Of a stretch of DNA of 32,950 nucleotides, positions 340 through 32,950 are shown piece by piece. The notes below the pieces were generated by a model that was not told where the DNA came from, made no database searches, and saw only the letters and a list, made by a program, of their open reading frames with translations. The translations under genes and the position numbers were made by a program. The DNA is taken from NCBI GenBank assembly GCA_964514295.1, contig CAZEQG010000001.1, positions 1-32,950 on the forward strand. The letters run 5' to 3'. Position 1 is the stretch's first letter, and every line of letters begins with the position of its first letter. The DNA is from an uncultured Alphaproteobacteria bacterium. Its GTDB lineage: Bacteria; Pseudomonadota; Alphaproteobacteria; CAZEQG01.

Positions 340-1833
340 TCAGCCCTCGCAGTTCTCCGCCACGAAGCGGTCCAGCAGGCGGACGCCGAAGGCGGAGGCG
401 CCCTTGGGCACGGTCGGCTTGTCCTTGTCGTACCAGGCCATGCCGGCGATATCGATGTGCACCCAGGGCACGTCGTTGGTGAAGCGCTTCAGCAGCATCG
501 CCGCGGTGATGCTGCCGCCCCAGCGGCCGCCGGTGTTCTTCATGTCGGCGATGTCGGACTTGATCTGCTCGTCATAGGCCTCGTCCAGCGGCATCCGCCA
601 CACCGGCTCGCGGACCGCCTTGCCGGCGGCGATGAGCTGGCCGGCAATGGCGTCGTCCGTCGAATAGAAGCCGGCATACACGCTGCCCAGCGCCACCACG
701 ATGGCGCCGGTAAGGGTGGCGAGGTCGATCATGAAGCGCGGCTTGAAGCGGTCCTGGCAGTACCACAGGCAATCCGCCAGCACGAGCCGGCCTTCGGCAT
801 CGGTGTTGATCACCTCGATGGTCTGGCCGGACATGGTGGTGACCACATCGGAGGGGCGCTGGGCGTTGCCATCGGGCATGTTCTCGACCAGGCCGACGAT
901 GCCGACCGCATTCACCTTGGCCTTGCGTGCGGCCAGCGCGCGCATCAGGCCGATCACCGTGCCGGCGCCGCCCATGTCCCACTTCATGTCTTCCATGCCC
1001 TGGGCCGGCTTGATCGAGATGCCGCCGGTATCGAAGCACACGCCCTTGCCCAGGAAGGCGACCGGCGGCTTGTCGCTGCCCTTCAGACCCTTCCACTGCA
1101 TGACCACCATCTTCGATTCCCGGGCGCTGCCCTGGCCGACGCCCAGAAGGGCACCCATGCCCAGCTTCTTCATCTCCTTCTCGCCCAGCACCTCGACCTC
1201 GAGGCCGACCTCGGTCAGCCCCTTGCAGACCTCGGCGAGGCTCTCGGGATGGATCACATTCGGCGGCTCCGACACCACGTCGCGGGTCAGGAACACCGAT
1301 TCGGCAAGCCCCTCCAGCACCTCGAAGCGCTTCTTGGCGGCCGCCGACTCGGCCACCTGCACGGTCAGCTTCTTCAGGCTCGGCTTGTCCTCGGCCTTCT
1401 CCCTGGTGCGGTACTTGTCGAAGCGGTAGGCCCGCAGCATCGCCCCGAAGCCCAGCGCCGCCGCCCGCTCGGCCAGGTCGCCCTTGGCCCCCTCGCTGGC
1501 GTCGAAGGCAACCACCGCCTCGCCTTCCGGCGCCTTCGCCAGGGCCGCGGCAATGTTGCCGCCGGCATCCTCGACCAGGGCGACGTCGACCGCATCCGGC
1601 TTGCCAAGGCCATAGAGCAGGATCTGCGACAGCTCGGTGCCGGCCGGCGCAAGCAGGCTCAAGGTCTGGTGCGCCTTGCCAGTGAAACGACTGGCCGCGA
1701 TCGCGCGGGTGACCGCACCGCCGGAGATACGGTCAAGTTCGGCCGCGGTCGGCAGCAGGGCCTTGCTTTCATGCACCCCCACCACCAGGACGCCCTTCTT
1801 CGGCAGCGCGGGCTTGGCGAACGCGATCTTCAT
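340..1833 (-). CDS. pepA: leucyl aminopeptidase, M17 family
   Basis: 497 aa from the ATG at 1833, with a GGAAGG Shine-Dalgarno 7 nt upstream; the longer track start at 1875 has none. M17 hallmark blocks are present: VCFDTGGISIKP, VGLVENMPDG and the NTDAEGRL signature (VINTDAEGRLVLADCL). Confidence 0.93.
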   Translation of the reverse strand: MKIAFAKPALPKKGVLVVGVHESKALLPTAAELDRISGGAVTRAIAASRFTGKAHQTLSLLAPAGTELSQILLYGLGKPDAVDVALVEDAGGNIAAALAKAPEGEAVVAFDASEGAKGDLAERAAALGFGAMLRAYRFDKYRTREKAEDKPSLKKLTVQVAESAAAKKRFEVLEGLAESVFLTRDVVSEPPNVIHPESLAEVCKGLTEVGLEVEVLGEKEMKKLGMGALLGVGQGSARESKMVVMQWKGLKGSDKPPVAFLGKGVCFDTGGISIKPAQGMEDMKWDMGGAGTVIGLMRALAARKAKVNAVGIVGLVENMPDGNAQRPSDVVTTMSGQTIEVINTDAEGRLVLADCLWYCQDRFKPRFMIDLATLTGAIVVALGSVYAGFYSTDDAIAGQLIAAGKAVREPVWRMPLDEAYDEQIKSDIADMKNTGGRWGGSITAAMLLKRFTNDVPWVHIDIAGMAWYDKDKPTVPKGASAFGVRLLDRFVAENCEG

Positions 1834-1871
1834 CGGGGAACCTTCCACGGGGCAGGAGTGTCGAGGGTTTG

Positions 1872-1900
1872 GCAATAGCCCCGGCCCGGGCAGGCGTCAA
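1872..1900 (-). promoter_or_regulatory. candidate sigma70-type promoter of pepA
   Basis: The minus strand reads TTGACG (1900-1895), 17 nt, TATTGC (1877-1872), about 40 nt upstream of the pepA ATG. This is a sequence match only. Confidence 0.3.
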
Positions 1901-3389: not shown

Positions 3390-6300
3390 TTAAGGCGGGA
3401 CCGCCGTGCCTTCCAGGGTCCTGCTGCGCCGCTGCGCCAATTCAGTCTGCCTTTCGACAAGCCGCAGTATCTGGCGGCCGTACTCAGCTTCGCTGATCCT
3501 GCCCCGTGCGCGCTCGCGGTCGAGCGAACGCGCCTGCGCCCGCAACTCGCGCTCGATCCGATCAAACTCGCGGCCATGGAAGTAGAAGCCGTCATCCACG
3601 CTGTGCGGCTTGATCTTGATGCCCACAGAGGAGGCCAGGGCTTGCGGCACGGAGTATGGCCGGTCGCGCCAATCTCGCACTCCGGTGATCGCGTCGCCGA
3701 TCTTCGACCAGTACCACGAGCCCGGAATCCACGCCGCAGAAGGCATCCAAGCTTTCCAGAGGTAGTTCCCCACCTTTCCCGCCTTGTCGCCCAGAGTGTC
3801 GGTGTATTCGTTCACGATCCGCTGGCCAGTGAAGCCGGACTTGTTCAACATCAGCTCGGACGCCAGCATCAGCGGGCCGCCGAACTGCAGCCAGGATGGC
3901 ATCGGAAGCGCACTGGAGCCCTGGTTGGTGTCGAACACGTCACCGGCCGGAATCCAGCGTCGCACGTCCAGGAACACGGGATTGCCGGAGTCATCCGACC
4001 ATGGCATGCGCCACATTCGCGGCGCCCCGATCCAGGTATAGCCCTGCTCCTGCTCGCGCATGCTGCGGCGCTGCCGCTCTTCGTCGTCGCCGTCCCCGGT
4101 GATCATGTAGGCCAGCTCATCGAGCATGAAGGCGACGAGTGCATACTTGGCCAGCTTCCACGGCCGGACGGCAACCGACTTGGCGATCACCGGAACGGCC
4201 CGGTAAGTGTATGACAGGAACGGTAGGACGGTGCGCCGCGCGGCGTTGATCAACGGCGCCCGAATGTCGTAGTCGAGGAACTGTTCACGGGCCTCGCGCG
4301 CTGCCTGCTCGACGCTGTAGCCCTGCGACCGTCGGCGCAGATAGGTCGCCATGCGGAACACCTCATCCTCAAGCCGATAGAGGTCTAGCATTGCCGTATC
4401 GGCGCGCTTCAGTCCGCTCCAGATGGCGTCCAGAACCTTGCCAAGCAGGCCGGCCGTAGCCTCCATGCCCCCCTTTCCGCCCTGCATATCCCGCTCGATC
4501 TCTTGCAGCAGAGGTTCCAGCGTGTTCTTCCGGATCTCGATCGACATCATGTCGGTGCCAAACGCGCCCGCCTCTACGGCGGCCTGATAGTCTGCATCGC
4601 CGCGCACCAGCGACCGGATGCCGCGCGCCAGATCGACGGCCCGCACGTCGGCAAGGTCCATCAGAACGGCGTTCGACATGACGTTGTTCATGTGCACCAC
4701 GGGCGCGCGCGCAGTGTGGTTCAGCTTAAACTGCCGCATCAGGCTGTCCCACCAGATGGGCTGCTGCATGCGCTCGATTTCCTGGATGTCGCGCCAGATC
4801 TCCGCGCGCACGAAACGGCCGGCGAGTGCGCCATAGCGCTTGGTCGAGGACTTCTCGATGGTGGTGTCCGGCACCTTGACCCACTGCACGTCCGGGTCCG
4901 CCCAGAACCTGCTGTAGTCCGCCGCCTCCTTCCACCCGGCCCCTTCCGGCGGTTCTTCCGTCGACCATTCCGGGTTTTCGGCGATATCCTTGTAGAAGCG
5001 GCCTGTCGCAAGATCATGCGCCATCGCCATGTAGGTTTTGGCGATCGTGTAGCGGGCGTCGACGATCTCCCCCATCCGCTCGCGCTCGGCCTTCGTGAAG
5101 TCGCGCCAGAGAACAAGCTTGCCACCCTTGCGCCCCCGCACCTCCCAAACACCCCGATCAACGAAGCCTTCGTAGCGCTCCGGCACCTCCGCGCCGTCCG
5201 GAAGATAGACGCGCTGCCTTACCTTTCCGTCTTCGATCCTGTCGAGCACCTGGAAGCGGTCACCACTCGCTGCCGTCAGGTCGCCGACAGCCGCCGGGGC
5301 GGCTTCGATCCACATGCCGCGCCCCTTGAACTGATCGCCGACGATCTTCTTTCGCCTGGCTCCGGCAAGCCGCGCAACCCAGCGCACAAGGCTGTTCTGG
5401 TCGGTCTCGTGCTTCAGGTAGACGCGGTGCAGGTAAGCGCCGCGATTGCGCTCATAGGCTTCCGCCGACAGCAACCCCAGGTCGACCGCCTCCCGCCCCA
5501 TGCTGTCGATGGCGTTGCGCACAGGCTCCGACAGCTTGGCCATGTCAGCGTCGGGCACCGTCTCTCCGGTCAGCACCGCCTGCAGGACCTTTGCCTCGGC
5601 GAGGCCGATGCCAGCGTCCCGGAAGGTGGCCATCAATTCCGGTATCTGCGCCTGGATGCGGCGTTCATCGAGGGCGCGCTTGCGGTCGCGCTCGACGTAG
5701 GCCGGATCGAGCCCGTAGCGGTCGACCAGCGCCGCCCGCGCCTTGTGCAGGAAGCCGTTCATCCAGGCCATCCGGCCATCATCGCGGAACTCGGCCTGGG
5801 TGATCACGCGCTTCGCCTGATCCGACAGCCACAGGCCGGGCTGCCACCGGCCGCGCCGGTCGAGGCCGCCAAAAACATCAAAGGGGATGCGCATCACCCG
5901 GTCGAGCGGCTGCGACTCGATCAGCCGCATCATCAGCGAGCGCCGGGCGGCGGCCCCGCCAGCGCTCCCGGCACCGGCATCTTCTGCGTCCCGGCGCTGT
6001 TCTTCGGACAGCGGAATGCCGGTGCGCTCGAAGACGGTCTTGTCGTCGGCGGACGAAGGGGCTACATCAACGTCAGACTGGCGCAGCGCATCGGAAGGTG
6101 CGTTAGGAAGCCCAACCCTCCCGAGATATTCGGCCAGCGTTGGGGACGCGTGTGACGGTCCGGCACGCCGCCAGTCCTCTTCCCACCTTCTCTTTTCCGC
6201 CATCTTCACGGCAATTTGTCGCTTTGTCAGGCGGTAGACGGAGACAACCCGCAATGTCTCTCCATCCCTGGCGACGACAAGTCGCATCGCTGGTGCTTCG

Positions 6301-9300
6301 CCAACCGACTCCCTGAATACCATCGCTCTGCCCGGGGCGAACGGAAACCAACCATCCGGCTTTGCAAGCACGAAATTGATGTCGTCGCGAACCGCCTGTG
6401 AGCCATCGTAATATTCTGGGTGTCGGGCCGCCAGATGCACCGGATTGGCTACTAGGCGAACATTCGGCATGCCCATCCATTCGGCGGTGGAATTTGGGAC
6501 CTTGAAGGCTTCAGATTCGTCACGCCCCCAGGCCGCCGCCTCTCGTGCCGGCGCGGCCGTCCGGCCCTGCCTGGCTGCCCTTGCCAGCCGCCCCCGCTCC
6601 AGGTCGCGGAATATCTCCTCGACGATCTGCTCGGGCTTCAGCAGCCGGCCCCGGAACTGCTTCAGCACGTCGGCCAGGAAGTCGCGCAGGGCACGGAAGG
6701 CGCGGGCGATGATGCCGGTTTCCTCAAGCCGCCCGAGCGACCATTCGCCATAGGCGTCGGCCACCGCTTCCTCGATCTGCATGTCGAGCGGCAGGTCGGG
6801 GTAGCGCGCCTTGATCTGGTAGCGCTCGATCCACACGGCCCGCGCCCGCGCATCGAGGCTGCGCCATGCCTTCTCCGATATCATGCCGGTGCGCCGGGCG
6901 ACGTGCAGCAGCTCGTGCCGGGCGGTGGCGAGCACCTCGCTGTCGGCGTAGGCTTCGTCGCCGGCCTTCAGCGCCAGGGCAAGGAAGCGCTGATAGGGGC
7001 GGCCGGGCACCGAAATCAGGGCGCCACGGACGGGGATCAGGGACTGTCCCTGCCGCTCCATGACTTCCTCGAACAGCCCGACCTCGATCTGCACATCCGG
7101 GCCGGCAATGCGGCGTACCGCCTTCTCGATCTCTGCCTTCGCCCGGGCAAGCCGCGCCGCCATCGCCGGGTCTGCCGACAGGCGCGCCTCGACATCGGGG
7201 GCAAGCTCGATCGCTGCGTCGGGTTGCTGCGCTCCGTCCTGTCCCTCTCCCGGCCCGCCAGTCCGGCGGAAGGCGTCGGTTGTGGTGTCCGCCATCTCGA
7301 GTCGCGGCTTGTCCGGATCGACGCTCTGCCCAACGCCCCATCCGCGCCCCGTGCGCCCCGTCTCGATGTCGGAGAAAAGGTCGCGGAAGTCGACATCTCG
7401 ACCGATCGCGCGGCGAATCGCCGCCCGCACCTGATCGAACAGTCGCTTGAGCCACCGCATCGCCATCAGCAGGCGACTCTTGGCCTCGCGCCCACCGGCC
7501 GCCCACTCGGCGTAGGCTTCGGCAATCGCCTCCTCGACCATCTGCGATTCCGTCAGACCCTGGGACCCATACCTTTCGCGGATGCGGAACCGCTCGCCCC
7601 AGCCCTGTTCACGGGCCGCCGCCGCCAGCGTCCGCCAGTTGATATCGCTGATGTAGCCGGACTGGCGCAGGTAGTGGATCGCCTCGTGCCTGGCGGTGCG
7701 CTGCGCATTCGGGCCGCCAAGCGCTACATGGATGATGCCGTCGATGTAGAGGCCATAGGCGCGGTCTCGGCCAGTCGCGGGATCGATCAATCGGTCAGGC
7801 GTGCTGACCTTGGCATTTGGGGCGATGCGGGCAAGCAGGTCCGCGACGACGGCGCGCGCCATGTTGCCGTCTGTCGTGGGTGCGCCGTAGACAGCCTCGG
7901 TCGCGGCGTTGGCGCGGGCGGTGGTTCCGGCGATGTCATAGAGCGCAACGTTTCCGCCCTCGGTCTCGCGCGCCTCGATGGTGTCGAACAGCCGGTCAAA
8001 CGCTTCTCGGATGCCCTCTTGCTCCATCTCCGCAGTCGACGGATAGACTCCGCTCGTCTCATCGATGTTGGCGAGGTAGTCGTTTTCAATGTTCTGCGCT
8101 GCCATTCGGTCGACGATGTACTTCTCGAACGACCGCGCGGCGAGTTCGATGATGGTGCTCCAGTATGGTTTGGAGCGGGCCTCGTCCACCTTCATCGAAC
8201 GTCTGATGACGCTGCTACCGTTTAATGTCTTGACCAGCTTCTGGAACGCCACAAACACTTCGGGGCGCATGCTCGCCGCGACGCTTCGTGGCTTCGCGCG
8301 GTCGGTGACGAATGCGCCCTTGCGAATGTCACTACCGTCGTCCTGACGGGCGAAGTAGTTGTCGAGCGCGTGCATCCACTCGTGCGCCAGCGAGCCGGGT
8401 CCGGCGTTCTTCGTCAGGTTGATGACCACCTGCACGGGCTCAAAATGCGCTTTCGCTCTCTGACTGCCGCCATGGCCACGAGCGCCAAACGCCAGCCCGA
8501 GTTCGCCGTTTAGCGACAGCGCCCGCGATGGTACGCCGAGCGTTTCGGCCATATCCATCAGGGCATCAAATGCTTCGTTCAGGTCCTTCTGGCGTCGGCC
8601 GCCTTCGACGTAGTTGCCAAACTGCACGCCCCGGAAGCCGAATGCCTCCTGGAACTTCTCTGGCGTTACGTTCGCGTCGCGCCGCTCCGGACCATTGCGG
8701 GTACGATTCTCAGCGCGCCGCTCGTTCGGCCCAGCGCGCATACGGTCGATCTCGGCCTGCAGCTCGTCGGCGTGCTCGGCCATGTACTCGCGGGCGGACG
8801 CCGGAGTATCGAAGCCGTCCTTCAGCCGGACCACGCCGGCATAACCATTGAAGCCGATGAAAATCGCGCCGTCGCTTCGGGCCTTGTAGATTTGCAGCGG
8901 GGTACGCTTGCGGCCGGTCGTCGCATCCTTTGTGCGGTCGACGGCCCGCAAGATGAAGGAGCGCGCCGGCGGGATGATTGCTTCGAGGGTCTCGGCGCTG
9001 ATGTTGGTGCGTCGTCCGGTCGGCCCCTCCAGAGTGTAGAACATCTTCGGCGGATCGTAGCGCTTGCTGTCGAACATGCTGTAGAGCGCCAAGGTGACGC
9101 GAAACTTCGCCGCCGCCTCGATCTGCGCCGGCGGCACATCGGCGATTATGTCGACGGTGTCGGCCAGCGGGCGCAGGTTGACATACTCCGTGCCCAGCGC
9201 GCGGATCTTCTCCTGGACCTCAGCGGCCGTTTTCTCTCCCGACAGCAGGCGGCCGGACAATTCCCTGGCCACGGCGACGTGTGCGGCCCAGCGGGTCAGT

Positions 9301-12300
9301 TTTCCGCCACTGCGCGGCTTACTCGGGATCGCGTCGCGCATCAGCGCGACGAAGGCGAGAGCCTTCGGGTCGACGCCCTCTGCGGCCAGTTTTTCGTAGT
9401 CTGGCCGAGGGAAAGAGACGGACAAAGGCTCGACCTTGACATCTATGCCGCTGTCGGAAAGCGCGGCTGTCAGCCGGCGCCGGGCATCCTTGCGTGCGCC
9501 ATCGATCTTCTCGCCAAAGTCCTCGATGCGGACAGAACTGGCGACGACATCTTCAACGGTTCCGGCTTTCGGTGCCGGTACGACTGGTGCTGTCTCAACC
9601 TGCCGTGCCGACTGGCTGCGCGACGCTACTCCGGCGCCGGCTCCTTCGCCGCCAGATCGCGCGCCTTCGCCGCCACCTGCAGGTCGGCCGCCCGGTTCAG
9701 TCCGCTCGGCTCGCTCTCCGCCGACCGCTCGAACAGGCGCGCCATCACCTCCAGGGGGTTTCGCAAGGAGATCGGCCTGGGCGGAGGCGTCGTCTCGTTG
9801 TCCATGCTGCTTCTCCTCAAGCGCCCGCAGGATGTCTGACGGCGACACTGCCGGCTGCCCCAGCAGGTCGCGGCCGGGCTGCGTCTTGCCGGCCTCTGTC
9901 AGGTAGAACCTGAGATCGCCTGCGATCCTCTCACGCCCGGCCGGCTGTGTCCAACTCTTGTGGTTGCGGAAGAACCGCCGCAGGAACAGCTCGCCGATCG
10001 GCGAAATCGACCGGCCGGACAGCATGTCTGTCTGCTCGACGATCTGCGTCAGACTCCGCCCCTCGCGGCGGGCGCGCTGCACCAGCCGCACAGCCTCCAG
10101 CAGGGCGTCGGTCTGATCCATCTCGGGCGCGATGCGCTTCGCTGCCGCGTCGGCCCGCATGCCGGCCCACACGCCCGCCATGTCGATCAGGGCGCCGCCG
10201 ATCGCGCGGATATTGGTGTCCGCACTCTCGACCAGCTCGGCCACAAGGGCGGCATCGCCATAGGCGCGCGCAAGCAGGGCCGCCTCGATCCGGCGCACGG
10301 CCTCCTGGCTCATCGCGCCATCGGCAGCGATCATGCCGGCCTGATCGTTGCGCGCCACCACGGATTGAATGAAGCGCCGCACAAAGTCGCGGTTGCCGGC
10401 CGCGTCTATGTCGCCGCCCCTGTATAGCGCCAGCAGGTCGTCCGGCATTGCCGCCGCGTCGGCCATGGCCCGCTCGGTGGTCGACATGCCAAGCGTGTCG
10501 CGCTCATTGGCCTCCCGCGTGAACGCCATGCGTTCCGCCGGGCTCATGTCGCCGCCCCGGATGCGCACCAGGACCGGCGCCCGCATGCCCTCGACCGGAT
10601 ATCCCTGGGCAGCAAGGTACTCGCGATAGCGTTCCGCGCCGCCCTGGGCATACGCCCGCCGGATCGCCAGCACGCGGCCGTTGCCGCTTTCGACGACACC
10701 GTCCTCCGCAATGATCGGGGCGCCGTCGCTGGCGCGCGCGCTGCGGTCGAGCAGGCGTGGATTCAGCCGCTGGGCAATGTCATTGATCTGCGTCTGGCTG
10801 GTGGCCCGGCTGCGGTCACGCGGCTGCATTTCCTGCGGGTAGGCCGGGTTGGACCGCCCGTCGTCAGTCTGCGAGGCCACGAGATCGCCAGCCTCGACGA
10901 TCGCATAGCGGACCGGAACCTCGCGCCCCCCACTGGTGACCGCCACATCCCGATCGAGGGGGTGGTGCGGGATCGAGGCGCGGGGGGCGCTGGTTGCCGC
11001 AGGCGTCTCCGGCGCTGCCGCTGCGGCCGGCATGGCGTCGTTCGCGGCGACCGCACCCTGTGCCGCCCCCGTTGTCACCGTGACGGGCGGGGCGGCCTGC
11101 GATCCGCTCCCAGACGTCGGCACAAGGCCCAGGTTGTCAGTGATCTGCGTCGAAGCGATGGCAGGCGCCCCCGTCTCGCGTTCGGCGGGCGGAAGGGCCG
11201 GTGGCTGTTCTGTCGCCGCTTCGTCCGCCGTCGGCTCCGGCTCCGGCTGCACGATGTCCAGGGGGCGGCCGGAAAGGGCATCATCGATGATGGCCTTGCC
11301 ACGGCTGATCGACGCATCGGGCAGCGGAGACGCGCGATCCTCCTCCGTGATGGGCGCCATTCGCGGCGGCGGCGCCTCTACCGCCCCGATGACATCCTCG
11401 GCCGGCAGTGCTCCGGCGGGCAGGTCGGCGGCCACGGCAGCCTGCTGCTGCAGTCGTGGCGCATCCACAGCGGCTGGCGACGGCGCCCCCTGCTGTCCGG
11501 CGGCCGCGCTGCCGCGCCGGCCATGCGGCAGCACCAGGCCGCCAATCGTCTGCATCAGCGCGCCCACGCTGAAGCCAACGCCGGCCGCCTCTCCGGCGCC
11601 CTGGAATGTGCCGCGCTCGGGATCGTAGGCCACGAGATCGGAGGCGATCAGATTGGCCGAAATGGTCTGGAACGCTTCCTGCGCCGCCTCTTCGCTGCCC
11701 TGCTTGATGGCCTCGCGGATCAACTGCTTGATGCTGCCGCCCGTTCCCTTGTCCAGCCGGTCGAGCAGGCGGCCGATCGGCACCGCCTCAGAGGTTCCGA
11801 CCAGCGCACCCAGATTGGCGGCCTTGAACGCATCCTCGATCGATGCCCCATGGGCTATCGCGTCCTCGAACTGCTGGGCGCCGCCAACCGCCGCACCCCC
11901 GCCGGCCGCCACCGCCGCCCCCGGCATGCCCATGGCCCTGCCGGCAACGCCGAGACCGAGGAAGCCGACAGCGCTGCCGAGGGCGTTCGGTATCTTGCTC
12001 GCCAGCCAGTCTTCGGCATACTCCGGGTTCACCGGAAGGGCCGCCTTTACGCGGTCGCTGATCCACTGGCCGGCCCGGTACCCGCCACCCTCGCGAGGGT
12101 CCGTCATGGCGTATTTCTGGCGCAACGCCGCGCGGCCGGCATCATCGGCGCGCTCATAGGCTTCGATGTCGCCCATGGTGACCACCGGCACATCGCCGAT
12201 GCCGACGGACTCGGGCTGCATCCTCCGCTCCGAGGCGCGCAGCCCGCTCGCGTCGATCCTGTCGAAGATGTCCAGTACCTGGCGATTGCCCTGCGCTTGG

Positions 12301-12518
12301 GCGATGCTCATCTGCTTCGGTATCCCCGCCACGACATCGGCAGCGCCACGTCCCAGGTTTGACACTGCCGTGGTGACCCAGCCGGCGGATGGATCATCGC
12401 CGATCGCGGCATCCCTTCCGACCACGGGATCGGCTTCCCACCAGCGATCCCCGGCGGCAGCGGCAGCGGCCGGAACGATCGGATCGGCTTCCCACCAGCG
12501 ATCCGGGGCGCCACTCAC
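3390..12518 (-). CDS. giant (3042 aa) polyvalent virion/ejection protein: ParB-like, LPD/zincin (HExxH), PBECR-like and PLxRFG-like modules
   Basis: A single uninterrupted ORF with a GTG start overlapping the upstream stop (GTGA). Recognisable blocks are QPRDR...GAPII...SGNGR (ParB/Srx-like), EDFGEKIDGARKD, GVQFGNYVEGG...GLAFGARGHGG...INLTKNAGPGSLAHEWMHALDN, two paralogous TARHExxH modules, a VHLAARHPEYY...VLAKPDGW module, and a C-terminal region of about 840 aa that begins RIPFDVFGG. Confidence 0.9.
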   Translation of the reverse strand: MSGAPDRWWEADPIVPAAAAAAGDRWWEADPVVGRDAAIGDDPSAGWVTTAVSNLGRGAADVVAGIPKQMSIAQAQGNRQVLDIFDRIDASGLRASERRMQPESVGIGDVPVVTMGDIEAYERADDAGRAALRQKYAMTDPREGGGYRAGQWISDRVKAALPVNPEYAEDWLASKIPNALGSAVGFLGLGVAGRAMGMPGAAVAAGGGAAVGGAQQFEDAIAHGASIEDAFKAANLGALVGTSEAVPIGRLLDRLDKGTGGSIKQLIREAIKQGSEEAAQEAFQTISANLIASDLVAYDPERGTFQGAGEAAGVGFSVGALMQTIGGLVLPHGRRGSAAAGQQGAPSPAAVDAPRLQQQAAVAADLPAGALPAEDVIGAVEAPPPRMAPITEEDRASPLPDASISRGKAIIDDALSGRPLDIVQPEPEPTADEAATEQPPALPPAERETGAPAIASTQITDNLGLVPTSGSGSQAAPPVTVTTGAAQGAVAANDAMPAAAAAPETPAATSAPRASIPHHPLDRDVAVTSGGREVPVRYAIVEAGDLVASQTDDGRSNPAYPQEMQPRDRSRATSQTQINDIAQRLNPRLLDRSARASDGAPIIAEDGVVESGNGRVLAIRRAYAQGGAERYREYLAAQGYPVEGMRAPVLVRIRGGDMSPAERMAFTREANERDTLGMSTTERAMADAAAMPDDLLALYRGGDIDAAGNRDFVRRFIQSVVARNDQAGMIAADGAMSQEAVRRIEAALLARAYGDAALVAELVESADTNIRAIGGALIDMAGVWAGMRADAAAKRIAPEMDQTDALLEAVRLVQRARREGRSLTQIVEQTDMLSGRSISPIGELFLRRFFRNHKSWTQPAGRERIAGDLRFYLTEAGKTQPGRDLLGQPAVSPSDILRALEEKQHGQRDDASAQADLLAKPPGGDGAPVRAVGGERAERTEPGGRPAGGGEGARSGGEGAGAGVASRSQSARQVETAPVVPAPKAGTVEDVVASSVRIEDFGEKIDGARKDARRRLTAALSDSGIDVKVEPLSVSFPRPDYEKLAAEGVDPKALAFVALMRDAIPSKPRSGGKLTRWAAHVAVARELSGRLLSGEKTAAEVQEKIRALGTEYVNLRPLADTVDIIADVPPAQIEAAAKFRVTLALYSMFDSKRYDPPKMFYTLEGPTGRRTNISAETLEAIIPPARSFILRAVDRTKDATTGRKRTPLQIYKARSDGAIFIGFNGYAGVVRLKDGFDTPASAREYMAEHADELQAEIDRMRAGPNERRAENRTRNGPERRDANVTPEKFQEAFGFRGVQFGNYVEGGRRQKDLNEAFDALMDMAETLGVPSRALSLNGELGLAFGARGHGGSQRAKAHFEPVQVVINLTKNAGPGSLAHEWMHALDNYFARQDDGSDIRKGAFVTDRAKPRSVAASMRPEVFVAFQKLVKTLNGSSVIRRSMKVDEARSKPYWSTIIELAARSFEKYIVDRMAAQNIENDYLANIDETSGVYPSTAEMEQEGIREAFDRLFDTIEARETEGGNVALYDIAGTTARANAATEAVYGAPTTDGNMARAVVADLLARIAPNAKVSTPDRLIDPATGRDRAYGLYIDGIIHVALGGPNAQRTARHEAIHYLRQSGYISDINWRTLAAAAREQGWGERFRIRERYGSQGLTESQMVEEAIAEAYAEWAAGGREAKSRLLMAMRWLKRLFDQVRAAIRRAIGRDVDFRDLFSDIETGRTGRGWGVGQSVDPDKPRLEMADTTTDAFRRTGGPGEGQDGAQQPDAAIELAPDVEARLSADPAMAARLARAKAEIEKAVRRIAGPDVQIEVGLFEEVMERQGQSLIPVRGALISVPGRPYQRFLALALKAGDEAYADSEVLATARHELLHVARRTGMISEKAWRSLDARARAVWIERYQIKARYPDLPLDMQIEEAVADAYGEWSLGRLEETGIIARAFRALRDFLADVLKQFRGRLLKPEQIVEEIFRDLERGRLARAARQGRTAAPAREAAAWGRDESEAFKVPNSTAEWMGMPNVRLVANPVHLAARHPEYYDGSQAVRDDINFVLAKPDGWFPFAPGRAMVFRESVGEAPAMRLVVARDGETLRVVSVYRLTKRQIAVKMAEKRRWEEDWRRAGPSHASPTLAEYLGRVGLPNAPSDALRQSDVDVAPSSADDKTVFERTGIPLSEEQRRDAEDAGAGSAGGAAARRSLMMRLIESQPLDRVMRIPFDVFGGLDRRGRWQPGLWLSDQAKRVITQAEFRDDGRMAWMNGFLHKARAALVDRYGLDPAYVERDRKRALDERRIQAQIPELMATFRDAGIGLAEAKVLQAVLTGETVPDADMAKLSEPVRNAIDSMGREAVDLGLLSAEAYERNRGAYLHRVYLKHETDQNSLVRWVARLAGARRKKIVGDQFKGRGMWIEAAPAAVGDLTAASGDRFQVLDRIEDGKVRQRVYLPDGAEVPERYEGFVDRGVWEVRGRKGGKLVLWRDFTKAERERMGEIVDARYTIAKTYMAMAHDLATGRFYKDIAENPEWSTEEPPEGAGWKEAADYSRFWADPDVQWVKVPDTTIEKSSTKRYGALAGRFVRAEIWRDIQEIERMQQPIWWDSLMRQFKLNHTARAPVVHMNNVMSNAVLMDLADVRAVDLARGIRSLVRGDADYQAAVEAGAFGTDMMSIEIRKNTLEPLLQEIERDMQGGKGGMEATAGLLGKVLDAIWSGLKRADTAMLDLYRLEDEVFRMATYLRRRSQGYSVEQAAREAREQFLDYDIRAPLINAARRTVLPFLSYTYRAVPVIAKSVAVRPWKLAKYALVAFMLDELAYMITGDGDDEERQRRSMREQEQGYTWIGAPRMWRMPWSDDSGNPVFLDVRRWIPAGDVFDTNQGSSALPMPSWLQFGGPLMLASELMLNKSGFTGQRIVNEYTDTLGDKAGKVGNYLWKAWMPSAAWIPGSWYWSKIGDAITGVRDWRDRPYSVPQALASSVGIKIKPHSVDDGFYFHGREFDRIERELRAQARSLDRERARGRISEAEYGRQILRLVERQTELAQRRSRTLEGTAVPP
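12427..12504 (-). repeat. 24-bp direct repeat (two copies, 54-bp period) at the 5' end of the giant gene
   Basis: GGATCGGCTTCCCACCAGCGATCC occurs at 12427-12450 and 12481-12504. It encodes the duplicated N-terminal motif DRWWEADP(I/V)V. Confidence 0.9.
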
Positions 12519-27494: not shown

Positions 27495-29714
27495 CTACAC
27501 GCTGCCACCGGCAGAGCGGCCGGTCGCATCGAGCGCCGCCATCTCGACGGCAAGCTTCCGCTCCGCGCTCGCGACCTCGCGCTCCTTGACGGCAAACATG
27601 GTCCTGAGCTTGTCCAGTTCGATGTTGCGCTTTTCGGCAAGCTCCATCATCGCCGTCTGGTAGCGCAGCTCCTCGATCCGCTCGGCGCTGTCCGCCCGCA
27701 TCTTGGCTATCGCCGCCTGGGTCTGCGCGCGCAGGGATTCCGGGTCCGGCTGCGGCGGTTGTGCGGCCCGCTCGGCAGCAGCCCGTTCTTCGGCCGCGCG
27801 CATCTCCGCATCGCTCATCACCACGTCGTCGGGCGACAGCATCATTGCCTTCGCAAGCTGGCGGGCCGCCGGCACGTCCTTCACAAAGGGCGCCAGCTTT
27901 GGGTTCTGCGCGGCAATCCCAAGGAAAGTCATGATGTTGCGGGCCTGGATGTCGCGCACCATCAGCACGCTCGACCCGCGCGCCTCGATCTCGGCATCGC
28001 CCTTGATGTCCTCGCGGGGGTTGTGCTGCATGTTCCAGTCGAACATGCGCTGGATGTTCGGCACGGTCATGTCGTCGTCCCAGTTCCGCACCGCGCCCCG
28101 AAACACCACATTGGCCGAGTTCATCAGCAGGCTCAGCCCCTCGGCCGTCTTGGTGACCTGCGCCCCACCCTCGCCCTGCGCGACCGGCGGCATGCTGGTC
28201 TCCGAGTCCGCAAAATCGCGCGCCATGGCGATGATGTTGGCCAGTTCCGCCTGTCGGAGGCCCACGTCCATGACCTCGATCGCAGGCCGGTTCGACGGCA
28301 CCGCGTCCATCCGGGTGACGAACAGCTTGCCTGCGTGCATGTCCCAGCGACCGTCGACCGGCTCGATCCTATCGCGATCCAGCACCTTCGGCGGGTTCGC
28401 GGCGATTGCGGCATTGTCCATCATCAGGCGCCACGCGGCGTTCATCACCGCCTGGCTGTCCCGCATGAGGTACGGGATGCCGAAGCCAAACAGGCTGCCG
28501 TCGTCGCGCTCGAAGTTGGCGACGCTGTAGACGGAGTCCCCGCTGTCGAGCGGGTGCGGCCCGAACTTCAGTACCCGGCCCTGCACGAACCACACGCACA
28601 CCCGATAGGCGTCGAGAGGATCGGCCTCCAGCATCCCAACCATGGCGGCCTTACGCTCCGGGTCCGCGATGCTAAGGGCCAGGCTCAGCATTTCCTCGGG
28701 TTCCAGCTCGCCGTGGTACTCCCAGACGCTGTAGCGCGCATCAAGCGCATGGACGTTCAGCGCCGTGATCTCGCGCAGCTGCTGGACATAGGTAGGCACG
28801 ATGTCAGGCTTGCCCGTCGTCAGCACCTCTTCCAGCGCCGCTCGGGAAAAGCCGGGCTTCTGCGCAAGGTCGCGCAGGTCCTTCGGGGTGAACAAATGGC
28901 GCTCGAAATCGAACGCGCGCTCCTCCGGCCGGATCGCCGTCATGTCCGGAAACCAGTTCCACGGATCGACGCGCACGAAGCTTGGCCTCGGGTCCTCGAC
29001 CGGGGCCGACTGCCAGCCACCTTCCTGGGCCGGCCGCCAGCGACGCTGCACGCGCCCTGTCAGCACAGGCCCTTTCATCACGCAGGTGCCCAACTTCACC
29101 ATGTCATGCAGCGCCCGCCGGCAGGCCGCGTTGTAGCCGCATTCGCGCAGCTGGTCGCGGATGACATCCTGCATGGCCTGTGCCGCGCGCTCGGCCTCCT
29201 CGACATTGCGGCGCAGTGCGGCCGCCTGCTCGGCCATCGGATCGAGCGACACGGCCAACTGCTCGGCTGCATCGGCCTGGCCGGCCCGCGCCATCGCATT
29301 CGCCCTTGCCAGCCCGTCGCGCATGGCGGCGCCGAGCCGCTCGGTCTGCGTCGACAGTTCCGGCACCGGGGTTGGGCGGATGGCCCAGTTGTCCTCGTCG
29401 GCCGGAAACAGCATGTCGCCAAGCCGTCGTTCCCACGCCAGCGTCATCGCCCGCGTCTCGTTCAGGAACACCCGGCTGCGCCCGCTGTCGGCAAGCGCCC
29501 GCTCGGTCTTCGGATCGTAGCGGCCGTGGTACTGCCGGACATCCTCGATCATCCGGTCTTCGACCATTTGGCGCTTGCTCGCCGTGTCCTGGGCAAGGCT
29601 GTCGAGCCTCTGCACCAGACCGTCGAGCCGCTCACGCAGCCGCGCATCGACCTCGGCGGGTGCAGCGGAAGCCGATACGGCGCCGTCCTCGCCCATGCGC
29701 GGCCGGTCTGCCAT
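27495..29714 (-). CDS. portal protein
   Basis: 739 aa from the ATG at 29714 (MADRPRMGEDG), overlapping the terL stop by 1 nt. It is the large protein immediately after terL and before the scaffold and capsid genes. The family is not verified. Confidence 0.7.
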   Translation of the reverse strand: MADRPRMGEDGAVSASAAPAEVDARLRERLDGLVQRLDSLAQDTASKRQMVEDRMIEDVRQYHGRYDPKTERALADSGRSRVFLNETRAMTLAWERRLGDMLFPADEDNWAIRPTPVPELSTQTERLGAAMRDGLARANAMARAGQADAAEQLAVSLDPMAEQAAALRRNVEEAERAAQAMQDVIRDQLRECGYNAACRRALHDMVKLGTCVMKGPVLTGRVQRRWRPAQEGGWQSAPVEDPRPSFVRVDPWNWFPDMTAIRPEERAFDFERHLFTPKDLRDLAQKPGFSRAALEEVLTTGKPDIVPTYVQQLREITALNVHALDARYSVWEYHGELEPEEMLSLALSIADPERKAAMVGMLEADPLDAYRVCVWFVQGRVLKFGPHPLDSGDSVYSVANFERDDGSLFGFGIPYLMRDSQAVMNAAWRLMMDNAAIAANPPKVLDRDRIEPVDGRWDMHAGKLFVTRMDAVPSNRPAIEVMDVGLRQAELANIIAMARDFADSETSMPPVAQGEGGAQVTKTAEGLSLLMNSANVVFRGAVRNWDDDMTVPNIQRMFDWNMQHNPREDIKGDAEIEARGSSVLMVRDIQARNIMTFLGIAAQNPKLAPFVKDVPAARQLAKAMMLSPDDVVMSDAEMRAAEERAAAERAAQPPQPDPESLRAQTQAAIAKMRADSAERIEELRYQTAMMELAEKRNIELDKLRTMFAVKEREVASAERKLAVEMAALDATGRSAGGSV

Positions 29715-31543
29715 CAATAGCCGCTCTTGGGGTCGGCCGGCAGGTGCTGCGCCGCGATCAGCGACGGTGCGCGGCTGCCCGCCACCGACGCTATCCGCAC
29801 GCCCTGCGTGACCATGTCTGCGAGGCACGACATCCAGCGCCCCTCCTCGATAGGCCGGCCCTGCTCGTCGCGCCGGTAGAGGCGATAGGCCGCCGCAAGC
29901 TCGGCACAGGTGGTCATGACCTTAAGGCGCCCTGTCGACAGGCGCTGCGTCACCGCATTGATCGTCGCCTCGGTGTCGACGGGGTGTGCCGTCGCCTGCG
30001 CCCGCAGCCCGAGGCTGCGATAGAGCACGTGGAGTCGCTCGCTGCCGTCATCAGTGCCGAAGGTGCCGGCCGATACCCCCCGCGCCGCCACGGCCGCCGC
30101 GTGAACGCTTGGCTCTGCCTGCCGGCGGCGGTGCTCGGTGTACACGTAGAGGCAGTCGATGGCCGGATCGAGAGCCCCCCAAAGCGCCCACACAGACTCT
30201 CCCACCACGCGCACCGCATAGACCCTCGGCCACCAGTTCGGGATGGCTTGCGGAGGCACTGCGATATCGTCCCAGTCCATGGTGTAGACCTGCCCCTGAC
30301 CCATGACCGGGAACATCTCCGTCATCGCCCACACCAGGGCGTCCACCCGGTCCGGGGACCCGTCGCCCTCGTAGCCGCCCGCCGTCATCAGCACCATCTG
30401 GGCTTCCAGCGCGTCGAACGCCCCGACGTGATGCACCTGGCCCGCCTCGTAGCGCGCCGCTATCGGCTCGGCCCGCACGTGCTTCCCGCGCGCCGCCCAC
30501 ACCATGCGGATCGGCAGGCCGGTGCGGATCGAATCCAGCGTGTGGCGCACCATCAGGCCGCCCTGATTGCGCTCGGCGACGATCAGGTCCGCCCCCCACC
30601 GGTCGTAGGCTTCGACCACGCCCGCCGCCCACTGGGCTGGCGTTCCCTTCATCGAGGCGTCCTCGAGCAGGTAGGCGTGGCCATTCGCGCCATGCCCGAC
30701 CACGACAATGCCGGTCTCATCGCCGCCGTCGCCGCCGCTCACAGCGGGATCGACGGCGACGACGATCCGCCCGAGGCTCACCGCATCGCGCCGACGGTGA
30801 CCGGCCATCATCGGATGATCGATCGCCTCCGCCGTCACGCGGTGGGCGTCAAGCACCGCCGCAGACCAGATCGCGCCGATCGCCTGAGGCTCGTAGGCGC
30901 CAAGCCAGATGTGCGCGTGCCGCACGGGATTGTGCAGCCGGTCATAGGCTTCGGCCTGCCGCAGTTCGTCCGGCAGCCAGGGGTTGTCGCTGTAGTTGGC
31001 CTCGATCACGATCGCGTTCTTCGGCCGGCTGGGGCCGCGCAGGAGCTGGTCGATCGGATCGCTCTCACGGCGCGGGTTCCAGCTCGCCCAGATCTCCGAG
31101 CCAGGCTTGCGGATCGTCGGGATCAGCATTTCCAGGCTGCGGCTCGATATCGTGTGCGCCTCTTCCAGCCACACCCCATCGAATCCTTCCAGAGACTTGA
31201 TTCCATCGGCCGAGTAATCGGTCATCCCACGAAAGATGATCACGCCGCCGCCGGGCGTCCTGATCTCTGACTGGACAATATCAAAGACGCCGCTCAGGCC
31301 AAGCAACCTGATCTTGTCTTCGATGAGCAGTTTGACGGACTCCTTTAGGTCCTTCTGGACCTCGCGGCCGCATGCCCATCGCAATCCCGGCTGCGCCACC
31401 GCCCGCGCGACCAGGAGCTGCGCAAAGGTGTGGCTCTTCCCCGAGCCGCGCCCGCCGTAGGCGCCCTTGAAGCGCGCGGGCTGCAGGAGTGGCAGGTACC
31501 GCCGCGCGATCTCAAGGCGCAGCGTGGGGCCGCCTCCGGTCAT
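29714..31543 (-). CDS. terL: terminase large subunit
   Basis: 609 aa from the ATG at 31543, which overlaps the terS stop (ATGA). The Walker A motif is YGGRGSGKSH, followed by an ATPase core, and the C-terminal half contains the acidic VAVDPAVSGGDGGDETGIVVVG block typical of the RNase H-like nuclease domain. The part of the track ORF upstream of 31543 is an Arg/Pro/Gly shadow overlapping terS. Confidence 0.9.
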   Translation of the reverse strand: MTGGGPTLRLEIARRYLPLLQPARFKGAYGGRGSGKSHTFAQLLVARAVAQPGLRWACGREVQKDLKESVKLLIEDKIRLLGLSGVFDIVQSEIRTPGGGVIIFRGMTDYSADGIKSLEGFDGVWLEEAHTISSRSLEMLIPTIRKPGSEIWASWNPRRESDPIDQLLRGPSRPKNAIVIEANYSDNPWLPDELRQAEAYDRLHNPVRHAHIWLGAYEPQAIGAIWSAAVLDAHRVTAEAIDHPMMAGHRRRDAVSLGRIVVAVDPAVSGGDGGDETGIVVVGHGANGHAYLLEDASMKGTPAQWAAGVVEAYDRWGADLIVAERNQGGLMVRHTLDSIRTGLPIRMVWAARGKHVRAEPIAARYEAGQVHHVGAFDALEAQMVLMTAGGYEGDGSPDRVDALVWAMTEMFPVMGQGQVYTMDWDDIAVPPQAIPNWWPRVYAVRVVGESVWALWGALDPAIDCLYVYTEHRRRQAEPSVHAAAVAARGVSAGTFGTDDGSERLHVLYRSLGLRAQATAHPVDTEATINAVTQRLSTGRLKVMTTCAELAAAYRLYRRDEQGRPIEEGRWMSCLADMVTQGVRIASVAGSRAPSLIAAQHLPADPKSGY

Positions 31544-31989
31544 GCCGCGTCGTCGCCGCGCTCCTGGGGATCGACGACGACCACCTCGATGCGGGTGTGC
31601 TGCTGGATCGGCCCGCCATCCGGCCCGCTGTGGCTGTGGTCGTAGCGCTCGCGGTACTTCTCGGGCCGGCGCGACCTCAGCAGGATTTCCAGCAGCCGAT
31701 CGGAATACTCCTGGACGTGGCCGACGACGACGCCCTTCTGGAACACCGGCTTGCGCACGCCCTCGACCGCCCGGCGCAGCGCTTCGTCCTCGATGCGGTC
31801 GGTGCCGGTCTCGACCGCCTCCTTCACCGCCCGGTCGAACTCCGGGTCCGCCTGCCGCCACGCCCAGAGGTTCTGGCGGCAGATGCCGCCGGCCTCGGCC
31901 GCCCTCGCGATAGACGCACCCTGCGCGATGGCGTCGAGGATGCGCTTCTTCCGCGCCGCCTTGGCGTCCTTGTCGACGGGCTTCGACAT
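31540..31989 (-). CDS. terS: terminase small subunit (HTH type)
   Basis: 149 aa with an N-terminal helix-turn-helix-like segment (ILDAIAQGASIARAAEAGGICRQNLWAWRQ) and the RLLEILLRSRRPEKY block common in phage small terminases. It is translationally coupled to terL. Confidence 0.8.
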   Translation of the reverse strand: MSKPVDKDAKAARKKRILDAIAQGASIARAAEAGGICRQNLWAWRQADPEFDRAVKEAVETGTDRIEDEALRRAVEGVRKPVFQKGVVVGHVQEYSDRLLEILLRSRRPEKYRERYDHSHSGPDGGPIQQHTRIEVVVVDPQERGDDAA

Positions 31990-32012
31990 GCTGCTGTGAC
32001 CTGCGTTCCGGC

Positions 32013-32047
32013 CACGAAAACGCCCCGCGCGACGGTGTCGGCGGGGC
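32013..32047 (-). terminator. rho-independent terminator between the repeat array and terS
   Basis: Minus-strand RNA reads GCCCCGC-CGAC-ACC-GUCG-C-GCGGGGC: a 7-bp all-GC stem plus a 4-bp extension, with one bulge and a triloop. It is followed by GUUUUCG and ends about 25 nt upstream of the terS ATG. Confidence 0.5.
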
Positions 32048-32148
32048 TCTGTGTGGCGCTATGGCGCTAGCGTAGCTAGCCGATGCCACTTTCCACACCG
32101 GATGTCAAGGGGGGGGTGATTGCCTGCGAGCGACCGGAAGCACTGCGA

Positions 32149-32699
32149 GTCCGCCGCATCCCCCGGCGGCAGGGGTGTCTTGTGGTGCTCAAAGGTGAAG
32201 GAAATCGTCATCAGGGCTTGTGTCCGCCGCATCCCCCGGCGGCTGGGGCGTCTCATGGGGGCCTGCCGGTGCAGCGGCCGCCCTCATGCGCCAGTGTGTC
32301 CGCCGCAACCCCGGCGGCTGGGGTGTCTCATGTGGCCACCGCCACCCGTCAGCAGCACGATACAGTTCGAGTCCGCCTCAGCCCCAGGCGGCAGGGGTGT
32401 CTTATGCCCGGATTGAGCCCAGGGATGACTGATCCCTTTTCCCGTCCGCCCCATCCCCGGGCGGCAGGGTGGTCTTATGCTATAGAGCCAGCGCCCGGCG
32501 CATCCGACGCGGCGGCCGTCCGCCTCAGCCCAGGCGGCAGGGGTGTCTGATGCTAGATGCGCATACGCTTCGGGCACGCCGCATATCAGCGTCCGCCCCA
32601 TCCCCGGACGGCTGGGGTGTCGTATGCCCCGCCCATATGGAGCGAGCCTTCACGCAAAGACGAGTCCGCCCCATCCCCGGGCGGCTGGGGTATTTGATG
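32149..32699 (-). CRISPR. CRISPR-like array: 8 heterogeneous 35-36 bp hairpin repeats and 7 unique 37-40 bp spacers (orientation inferred)
   Basis: Repeats lie at 32149-32184, 32222-32257, 32298-32332, 32371-32406, 32444-32479, 32518-32552, 32591-32626 and 32664-32699. The plus-strand consensus is GTCCGCCNCATCCCCN'GGCGGC(A/T)GGGGTGTCTNATG. Spacers are unrelated to one another. The minus orientation is inferred from the neighbouring genes, the downstream terminator and the 3'-terminal hairpin-AC layout. Repeat identity is lower than in canonical arrays. Confidence 0.55.
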
Positions 32700-32816
32700 G
32701 GGGCCGCCGCGCAAGCCGTTGATCCGGCTGCGTAATCTGCGGCCCTTGCGAGGGCGCCCGACGATGGCAAAGAGCGGGGACTGGCCGGGGCAGGATAGTG
32801 CCGCCGGCCGGCCCGG

Positions 32817-32950
32817 TCAAGCCGCGAGCGGTGCCGACCCTTCCGGCGCCGCCGGAGCGCTCGCGGCGCGGCATAGCAGGATGGCGGCGGCGTGGTCCTG
32901 GTCGTGGACGTGGCCGCAGCCCGCACAGCGGTGGATCAGCGCCGCCCGCG
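32817..32950 (-). CDS. 3' end (last 44 codons) of a TnpB/Cas12-family-like nuclease gene (zinc ribbon plus RuvC-III-like motif); the gene continues beyond the window
   Basis: My own translation of the minus strand from 32948 gives RAALIHRCAGCGHVHDQDHAAAILLCRAASAPAAPEGSAPLAA, with the stop at 32819-32817. Third positions are about 90 percent G/C. CxxCGH followed by D.D.AAA.LL resembles the C..CGh...DrDvNAA.NI terminus of TnpB/Cas12. It is too short (under 60 aa) to appear in the supplied track. Confidence 0.45.
   Translation of the reverse strand, partial: RAALIHRCAGCGHVHDQDHAAAILLCRAASAPAAPEGSAPLAA

Follow-up and report, generated by a model that had tools for sequence, protein, structure and literature searches.

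What gene is cut off by the right-hand end of this prophage, and is the repeat array beside it the gene's own source of guides? The stretch analyzed here (the window) is 32,950 nucleotides (nt) of contig CAZEQG010000001.1, positions 1 to 32,950 of the forward strand, from an uncultured Alphaproteobacteria bacterium (assembly GCA_964514295.1), and it is a prophage in the chromosome. A sequence-only reading had pointed to an open reading frame (ORF) truncated by the window edge, ending like a TnpB or Cas12 nuclease and lying next to an eight-repeat array. We consider it likely that this edge ORF is the C-terminal end of a prophage-carried Cas12m-type effector (subtype V-M, formerly V-U1) and that the array, 117 nt downstream, is its CRISPR array. 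The locus is a divergent addition to the known V-M kind and leaves current understanding in place. It comprises the following features.

32817..32950, minus strand: 3' end of a probable cas12m-like gene (translation, phmmer against PDB, Cas12m C-terminus profile, Pfam PF07282)
32700..32816, minus strand: likely array leader, 117 nt from the stop codon to the first repeat
32149..32699, minus strand: probable CRISPR array, 8 repeats (35-37 nt each) separated by 7 spacers (36-40 nt each), period 73-75 nt

Homology of the Edge ORF

The minus-strand frame from 32948 to 32820 holds 43 codons (RAALIHRCAGCGHVHDQDHAAAILLCRAASAPAAPEGSAPLAA), closes at a TGA stop (32819-32817) and is open up to the window edge, the gene start lying beyond it. 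Translation of 32814-32948 reproduced the peptide and stop quoted in the sequence-only reading exactly. Both motifs named there lie where they had been placed: CxxCGH at residues 8-13, with C8 and C11 as the second zinc-finger CxxC, and the D-x-D-x-A-A-A-I-L-L element (D-Q-D-H-A-A-A-I-L-L) at residues 16-25, with D16 and D18 as the RuvC-III "DQD" block. The block had been put about 20 residues before the stop; it is present, but its second Asp stands 25 residues before it. The 117-nt gap between the stop and repeat 8, on the same strand, was confirmed (32700-32816).

Third codon positions are rich in G and C, as had been claimed (0.84), but first positions reach 0.82 (second, 0.66), so this bias does not single out the frame; the neighboring terS gene has 0.93, 0.74, and 0.45 at third, first, and second positions. 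Because codon-position bias is not distinctive and a plus-strand frame from 32765, antisense to the edge ORF, is likewise open, composition is unable to establish the frame, and homology is needed. Judged by homology and not by composition, the edge ORF is a real gene end.

We built a hidden Markov model (HMM) of the Cas12m C-terminus (37 columns) from 108 C-termini out of 120 collected MmCas12m homologs, the fragment excluded, and searched 27,730 stop-free six-frame peptides (2.18 million residues) with it, taken from the window and from related GC-rich loci totaling ~1.2 Mb. Its score for the fragment was 32.5 bits (E = 7.3e-8), whereas the runner-up among the 27,730 peptides reached 9.8 bits. 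In PDB, the top phmmer match was Cas12m2 (8HIO/8HHL) at E = 5e-4, where residues 7-35 of the fragment pair with the end of the 596-aa chain (568-596). Eight PDB chains matched at E < 10; each is a Cas12m, a TnpB, or a similar "transposase", and in each the alignment falls at the C-terminus. ISDra2 TnpB is one of them (E = 0.15).

The top Pfam match was Cas12f1-like_TNB (PF07282; E = 0.0015, 19 bits vs. a cut-off of 26.3), a zinc-ribbon domain that covers TnpB as well as Cas12f, followed by a rubredoxin-like knuckle (E = 0.06). NCBIfam returned TnpB models only, IS607_TnpB and guided_TnpB (E = 0.04 and 0.09); both miss their curated cut-offs (NF038280, 12.8 vs. 350 bits; NF040570, 12 vs. 100 bits), which are set for whole proteins and which a short fragment is expected to fail. 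The informative comparison is between the Cas12m profile, at 32.5 bits, and the TnpB models, well below it at 12-19 bits. The zinc ribbon and RuvC-III end of TnpB/Cas12 type that had first been recognized is thus supported by every sequence search (PDB, Pfam, NCBIfam, Cas12m HMM), and the suggestion of a miniature type V system is narrowed to subtype V-M by the Cas12m HMM together with the repeat fold described below.

Residue by residue, the fragment carries the Cas12m-type end C-x-G-C-G-x3-D-Q-D-x-A-A-x-L-L-x-R-A. C-termini of MmCas12m homologs share V-x-C-D-G-C-G-x-x-Y-D-Q-D-x-S-A-T-x-L-M-L-x-R-A, and one Cas12m subgroup ends in "...CDGCGxxYDQDHAA[TA]ALMLQRARR", where the window has "CAGCGHVHDQDHAAAILLCRAAS"; the fragment's HDQDHAAAILLCRAAS is close to the YDQDHAA[TA]ALMLQRARR of that subgroup. 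All invariant columns of a 10-sequence C-terminal alignment (C8, G10, C11, G12, D16, Q17, D18, L24) are kept. The Asp of the fragment's "DQD" is the counterpart of D579, the third RuvC residue of MmCas12m, whose triad is of the H-D-D type (D-E-D and N-D-D are among the other Cas12m types); the window protein is known from this third residue (Asp) alone, the first two triad positions lying beyond the window.

Among characterized proteins, Cas12m2 (MmCas12m of Mycolicibacterium mucogenicum; PDB 8HHL, 8HHM, 8HIO; PMC10442227) aligns end to end over its C-terminal 29 residues (RCAGCGHVHDQDHAAAILLCRAASAPAAP vs. RCDGCGAMYDQDRSFVTLMLRAATAPSNP), although its host is actinobacterial, whereas the window is a prophage with mostly alphaproteobacterial terminase relatives. 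ApCas12m (Alphaproteobacteria, D-E-D triad; PMC11013384) shares the general C-terminus (LIRVCPGCGDACDQDESAARVLLARG vs. LIHRCAGCGHVHDQDHAAAILLCRAA). P0123, an ApCas12m relative and the nearest GC-rich one from a search of that clade, ends in ...ASAPLA where the window protein ends in ...GSAPLAA, and it is Ala/Arg-rich, as expected of a GC-rich genome; its BLASTP similarity to the fragment, however, spans only 15 residues, and both ApCas12m and P0123 differ from the window in having repeats of the usual V-M sequence type. The C-termini closest to the window's are only ~40-45% identical to it; between clades, virus-borne V-M proteins share 37-49% identity. A tblastn search of the fragment against phage and plasmid records and a blastn search of 32700-32950 against plasmids returned nothing.

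Fold of the Repeats

The crRNA (CRISPR RNA) scaffold of Cas12m2 is a repeat-derived segment of 36 nt in which C(-22..-17) pairs with G(-8..-3) and G(-23) with A(-2); together with another stem, this makes a pseudoknot (PMC10442227). Each of the ~36-nt window repeats can form the same kind of structure, in which a stem of 4 bp (CCCC/GGGG) crosses a helix of 6 bp (CCGCCN/N'GGCGG) and the repeat ends in GAC. Read directly, the segment lengths are 8-4-1-7-4-4-6-2 in the Cas12m2 scaffold (GUGUCAUAGCCCAGCUUGGCGGGCGAAGGCCAAGAC) and 9-4-1-7-4-3-6-2 in the window repeat. A GAC 3' end is found in all eight published Cas12m repeats and likewise in the window repeats. At the Cas12m2 locus as in the window, the array is downstream of the gene and on its strand. 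The differences from the Cas12m2 repeat are in the bases, which are unrelated, in the loop (4 nt vs. 3 nt in the window), in the 5' tail, and in the variation of the window repeats among themselves.

All eight window repeats differ (mean pairwise identity 0.84) around the minus-strand pattern CAT-N-AGACA-CCCC-W-GCCGCC-N-GGGG-NTG-N'-GGCGG-AC, yet the changes keep the fold. The two-helix pairing holds in 97% of cells over the eight repeats, vs. at most 62% when the partners are slid, and one helix position covaries across the repeats as C-G, G-C, and U-A. Variation is concentrated in the 5' nine bases; the 5' part of the repeat is the same part that is disordered in the Cas12m2 structure (PMC10442227). 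We also searched with a structure-only descriptor, which requires a stem of 4 bp crossed by a helix of 5-6 bp and a terminal AC. It matched 9 of 11 known V-M repeats and 7 of the 8 window repeats, all on the gene's strand, over a background of 243 matches per 2.46 Mb. In the direction of transcription the repeats are as follows.

32664..32699, minus strand: repeat 8, first in transcription direction, CATCAAATACCCCAGCCGCCCGGGGATGGGGCGGAC; fits the pseudoknot descriptor
32591..32626, minus strand: repeat 7, CATACGACACCCCAGCCGTCCGGGGATGGGGCGGAC; pseudoknot descriptor
32518..32552, minus strand: repeat 6, 35 nt, CATCAGACACCCCTGCCGCCTGGGCTGAGGCGGAC; U-A pair at the variable helix position
32444..32479, minus strand: repeat 5, CATAAGACCACCCTGCCGCCCGGGGATGGGGCGGAC; pseudoknot descriptor
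32371..32406, minus strand: repeat 4, CATAAGACACCCCTGCCGCCTGGGGCTGAGGCGGAC; pseudoknot descriptor
32298..32334, minus strand: repeat 3, CACATGAGACACCCCAGCCGCCGGGGTTGCGGCGGAC; one base missing where helix II meets stem I; pseudoknot descriptor
32222..32257, minus strand: repeat 2, CATGAGACGCCCCAGCCGCCGGGGGATGCGGCGGAC; pseudoknot descriptor
32149..32184, minus strand: repeat 1, last in transcription direction, CACAAGACACCCCTGCCGCCGGGGGATGCGGCGGAC; pseudoknot descriptor

Because type V guides sit 3' of the repeat, the sequence from 32148 downward, after repeat 1, could act as an eighth guide.

Other identities for the array were considered and set aside. A role in terminase binding (pac site) and one as an RNA decoy mimicking the host's CRISPR repeats were both dropped once the repeats matched the Cas12m scaffold on the effector's strand. 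A tRNA-like origin (repeat 4 is preceded by TTCGAGTCC) was rejected, as ARAGORN finds no tRNA. The spacer-repeat junction before repeat 4 (32362-32384, plus strand, TTCGAGTCCGCCTCAGCCCCA) resembles a tRNA T-arm and acceptor 3' end, probably by coincidence.

Gap and Array Flanks

The 117-nt gap folds into stable hairpins (z-score -2.0) and would be the array leader. A σ70-like promoter match (TTGACC-17-TATCCT) runs on the minus strand from 32820 to 32792 and overlaps the stop codon; the scan found one site where shuffled sequences gave 0.1 expected, and the site may act as a promoter. A GC-rich hairpin, GGGACTGGCCGGGGCAGGATAGTGCCGCCGGCCGGCCC, occupies 32777-32814, starting 3 nt after the cas12m stop and holding the -10 element of the predicted promoter in its loop; it may serve as terminator, attenuator, or part of the leader. 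The same hairpin surfaces as a spurious mir-1207 alignment in a search of 31900-32950 against Rfam, which gave only chance-level matches at E ≤ 10 and no omega-RNA-like family. On the far side, between the array and terS (minus strand, ~32015-32045), CCCCGCCGACACCGTCGCGCGGGGCGTTTTCG forms a GC stem followed by four T residues. It could terminate array transcripts before terS; a consensus scan did not flag it.

Comparison with Virus-Borne V-M Loci

Six viral contigs encode Cas12m relatives. In three of them (L090, L091, L093), cas12m is followed on the same strand by an array of 8-11 repeats with a period of 71-75 nt; repeat length and period match those of the window array. Mean pairwise repeat identity is 0.83, 0.92, and 0.91, respectively, against 0.84 in the window. 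These loci and L086/L088, all from IMG/VR, share with the window the order of cas12m followed by diverged repeats that keep their pairing; their repeats, however, belong to a GTCGCAA...GAC family that a sequence-based repeat model, R1 (described below), detects, and the window's do not. Repeat heterogeneity is thus common in virus-borne V-M arrays, as expected where no adaptation module renews the array.

That no cas1, cas2, or cas4 gene lies in the window, as the sequence-only reading had stated, held on the visible side, where the next genes are terS, terL, and the portal gene; the other side lies beyond the window. Subtype V-M is characterized by the lack of such adaptation genes and of a tracrRNA. 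A published phage Cas12m locus likewise lacks cas1, cas2, and cas4 (phage and prophage Cas12m: PMC11656645; bioRxiv 10.64898/2026.09.14.751636).

The contig L086 (IMGVR_UViG_3300021363_000011) carries cas12m, then 415 nt with degenerate V-M repeats, then a large terminase gene, a neighborhood that it has in common with the window although the two phages are unrelated. In this actinobacterial-type phage, V-M-like repeats occur at 7159-7442, 9114-9141, and 11750-11785 besides 4797-5211. One cluster, of ~8 units, begins upstream of a 706-aa ORF and reaches into its annotated 5' end; relatives lack the first ~100 residues of this ORF, the start probably being miscalled; solitary V-M-like repeats adjoin other genes, one ending a single base before the gene at 9142. 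This scatter suggests guide-like regulatory RNAs.

Two further arrangements were observed. In mycobacterial-type loci, a single V-M repeat (L083, 4920-4955; L084, 4921-4956; 24-25 bits with R1) stands ~45 nt upstream of the cas12m start, with no array detected near cas12m; it may be an autoregulatory cr-like RNA. In L089 (7412-9653) and L092 (7469-9710), arrays of ~31 V-M repeats lie ~2 kb downstream of cas12m, and the repeats, judged by equal model scores, are mostly identical, in contrast to the short, diverged arrays of L090, L091, L093, and the window.

Evidence Against a Cas12m Assignment

A number of results weigh against a Cas12m effector with its own array. At the level of repeat sequence, the window repeats do not follow the characterized V-M pattern GT-N-G/A-CAA-N-GCC ... 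GAGAC/GCGAC, and the covariance model R1, built from 15 known V-M repeats, found no match at the window array at E ≤ 10. R1 scores independent V-M repeats at 24-47 bits (L089, L092, L086, L083, L084), which places the window repeats outside the characterized family at sequence level. Repeat sequence is no formal criterion for subtype V-M. Taking predicted pairing and sequence together, the window repeats share the V-M fold and lie outside the characterized sequence family, and the locus is divergent.

Searches for targets and relatives were also negative. No protospacer was found in phage records or in the window itself, nor in plasmid records, where the best match (E = 0.01) involved short GC-rich pieces; in viral contigs, a single 22-nt seed from one spacer was looked for and found no exact match. 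The repeat pattern was absent from viral and genome contigs, and its single lone match in metagenome contigs (L006) is compatible with chance for 23 GC-rich bases. In large protein collections, neither a word-index search with the fragment nor an exhaustive phmmer search with 31 of its residues gave any match (the latter at E ≤ 0.001), and an exact 39-mer from the edge ORF was unmatched in viral contigs. A related-locus search with the C-terminal alignment returned L086 alone and no close relative.

The visible effector, moreover, amounts to 43 C-terminal residues, where a full-length Cas12m has ~550-700 aa; RuvC-I/II, WED, REC, length, and intactness lie beyond 32950. Around the terminase genes, 76 terL-related genome loci (L007-L082) and four terS-related viral contigs showed neither a repeat of this kind nor, upstream of terS and terL, an array like the one in the window, and the closest terL-related prophage inspected (L007) has no such gene there. 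The cas12m-array locus is accordingly an accessory insertion in this phage and looks like a recent one.

Alternative Explanations

Repeat divergence might also mean decay, and the alternative that survives best is that the locus is a decaying, nonfunctional V-M remnant, with a truncated gene or pseudogene and repeats that are drifting relics. The differences among all eight repeats, the absence of a spacer target in phage or plasmid records, the window, and viral contigs (one seed), and the absence of close relatives of protein or repeat in large collections are what such a relic would show. The repeat changes nevertheless keep the fold, down to the C-G, G-C, and U-A exchange; they fall mostly in the 5' 9 nt that are disordered in Cas12m2; other virus-borne V-M arrays are equally diverged; and the visible codons retain every invariant C-terminal family residue (C, G, C, G, D, Q, D). 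We regard decay as unlikely.

A more elaborate proposal is that alphaproteobacterial prophages harbor a Cas12m lineage not sampled before, which has a repeat family of its own and is represented by this locus. In this view the position beside terS and terL is functional and Cas12m is an RNA-guided repressor of late genes. A nuclease-independent binder would then time the late genes of the phage itself or of a rival, and structure-preserving repeat divergence would be selected, for instance against recombinational loss of the array. The position upstream of terminase genes does recur in the unrelated actinobacterial phage L086, which also has solitary V-M-like repeats. We consider this extension improbable.

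An ordinary IS200/IS605- or IS607-type tnpB, with its omega-RNA at the gene's 3' end and the array an unrelated neighbor, was the other option in the sequence-only reading. TnpB elements often insert into phages, the domain and family models matched include TnpB in Pfam, NCBIfam, and PDB (ISDra2), and the 117-nt gap folds into stable hairpins. The TnpB of IS200/IS605 (ISDra2, PDB 8BF8/8H1J) shares with the fragment a C-terminal zinc finger followed by the RuvC-III Asp, but it uses one long omega-RNA with a single guide set by the transposon end in place of a repeat-spacer array, carries the motif DRDxNAAxNI, and cleaves DNA. The fragment has the Cas12m "DQD-x-A-A-x-L-L" rather than the TnpB "D-R-D-x-N-A-A-x-N-I"; TnpB-model scores fall far under the curated cut-offs (19 vs. 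26.3; 12-13 vs. 100-350), against 32.5 bits for the Cas12m profile; and the adjacent repeats carry the Cas12m crRNA pseudoknot on the gene's strand. A tnpA gene and the left end of such an element would lie outside the window. With Rfam giving no omega-RNA-like family over 31900-32950, a standard IS605 tnpB is not favored, and we rate it very unlikely.

Genes for HNH endonucleases or zinc-finger regulators are often found upstream of terminase genes. That the edge ORF is the end of such a gene, or a chance frame with a generic CxxCG zinc knuckle, is hardly credible: stop-free frames are common at 68% GC and the antisense frame is open too, third-position GC is not distinctive, a rubredoxin-like knuckle is the second Pfam match, and the exhaustive phmmer search was empty, but the Cas12m HMM leaves a 23-bit gap to the best of the control peptides, the alignment extends to the very end of Cas12m2, and no HNH or other unrelated family, the refuting outcome foreseen at the outset, was matched in Pfam or NCBIfam.

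Proposed Mechanism and Significance

For a Cas12m effector with its own array, we propose the following mechanism. The array would be transcribed from the leader toward terS, either via the promoter-like site (32820->32792) or by read-through from cas12m. Cas12m would trim the precursor crRNA upstream of each scaffold, as inferred from characterized Cas12m, and each crRNA would consist of a 5' handle, formed by the repeat pseudoknot, and a guide made of the first ~17-20 nt of the spacer behind it. By analogy, the complex would bind double-stranded DNA flanked by a protospacer-adjacent motif (PAM) tightly and without cutting, blocking transcription or replication; the characterized Cas12m proteins (Mm, Go, others) bind DNA and silence without cleavage (PMC11013384, PMC10442227). 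The most likely use to the prophage would be to exclude or silence competing phages or plasmids, protecting lysogen and phage alike, a role that matches the enrichment of V-M systems on plasmids and their presence in some prophages (PMC11656645). The observation that the repeats drifted yet kept their base pairs would be explained by the lack of visible genes for spacer acquisition, a lack that V-M loci typically show.

V-M systems of this kind are already known, which makes the original observation a correct but fairly ordinary one. Few programmable DNA binders are as small as the Cas12m proteins, which are under development as base and epigenome editors; the range of such tools would grow with orthologs that differ in crRNA handle and possibly in PAM. 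The locus would add a temperate-phage example of a CRISPR system without adaptation genes, probably noncutting by analogy with its relatives, and it fits the view that mobile elements turn V-M systems on one another. Two small leads that can be tested are the terminase-adjacent position and the drift of the repeats with their structure preserved. The small V-U effectors, among them V-U1, have been suggested as intermediates between TnpB and the larger Cas12 proteins (PMC11013384).

Prophage Context

The array and edge ORF lie directly upstream of terS on the same strand; the phage genes also include capsid and portal genes on the minus strand.

31540-31989, minus strand: terS
29714-31543, minus strand: terL
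3390-12518, minus strand: large polyvalent protein, 3042 aa, with ddrB-like ParB, LPD5, and LPD1 domains
340-1875, minus strand: leucyl aminopeptidase gene (pepA), Peptidase_M17, host
10-330, plus strand: ORF tail, host

The host genes at the left end (pepA) rule out a circular join of the window ends. The left prophage boundary falls roughly between 1900 and 3400, where no tRNA gene or att site was identified. Relatives of terL are mostly from alphaproteobacterial prophages, the closest being a Thalassobaculum metagenome-assembled genome (64% identity). The only contig shown with the same terS protein (L001, Logan) ends inside the array; the phage also occurs in the read set SRR12997673.

The 3042-aa polyvalent protein fills more than a quarter of the window and is of a type known from phages and conjugative elements. 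Repeats of other kinds were seen near terminase relatives. In L004 (6200-7193), a 72-nt unit is repeated 13 times in tandem, ~500 nt upstream of a terS relative. With a period divisible by three and 60-79% likeness between copies, it has the look of a 24-residue coding repeat and not of an RNA array. In L069 (4354-5421), a conventional CRISPR array of 17 copies, with a GTTTCAATT... repeat, stands at the end of a Cardiobacterium contig that carries a terL relative.

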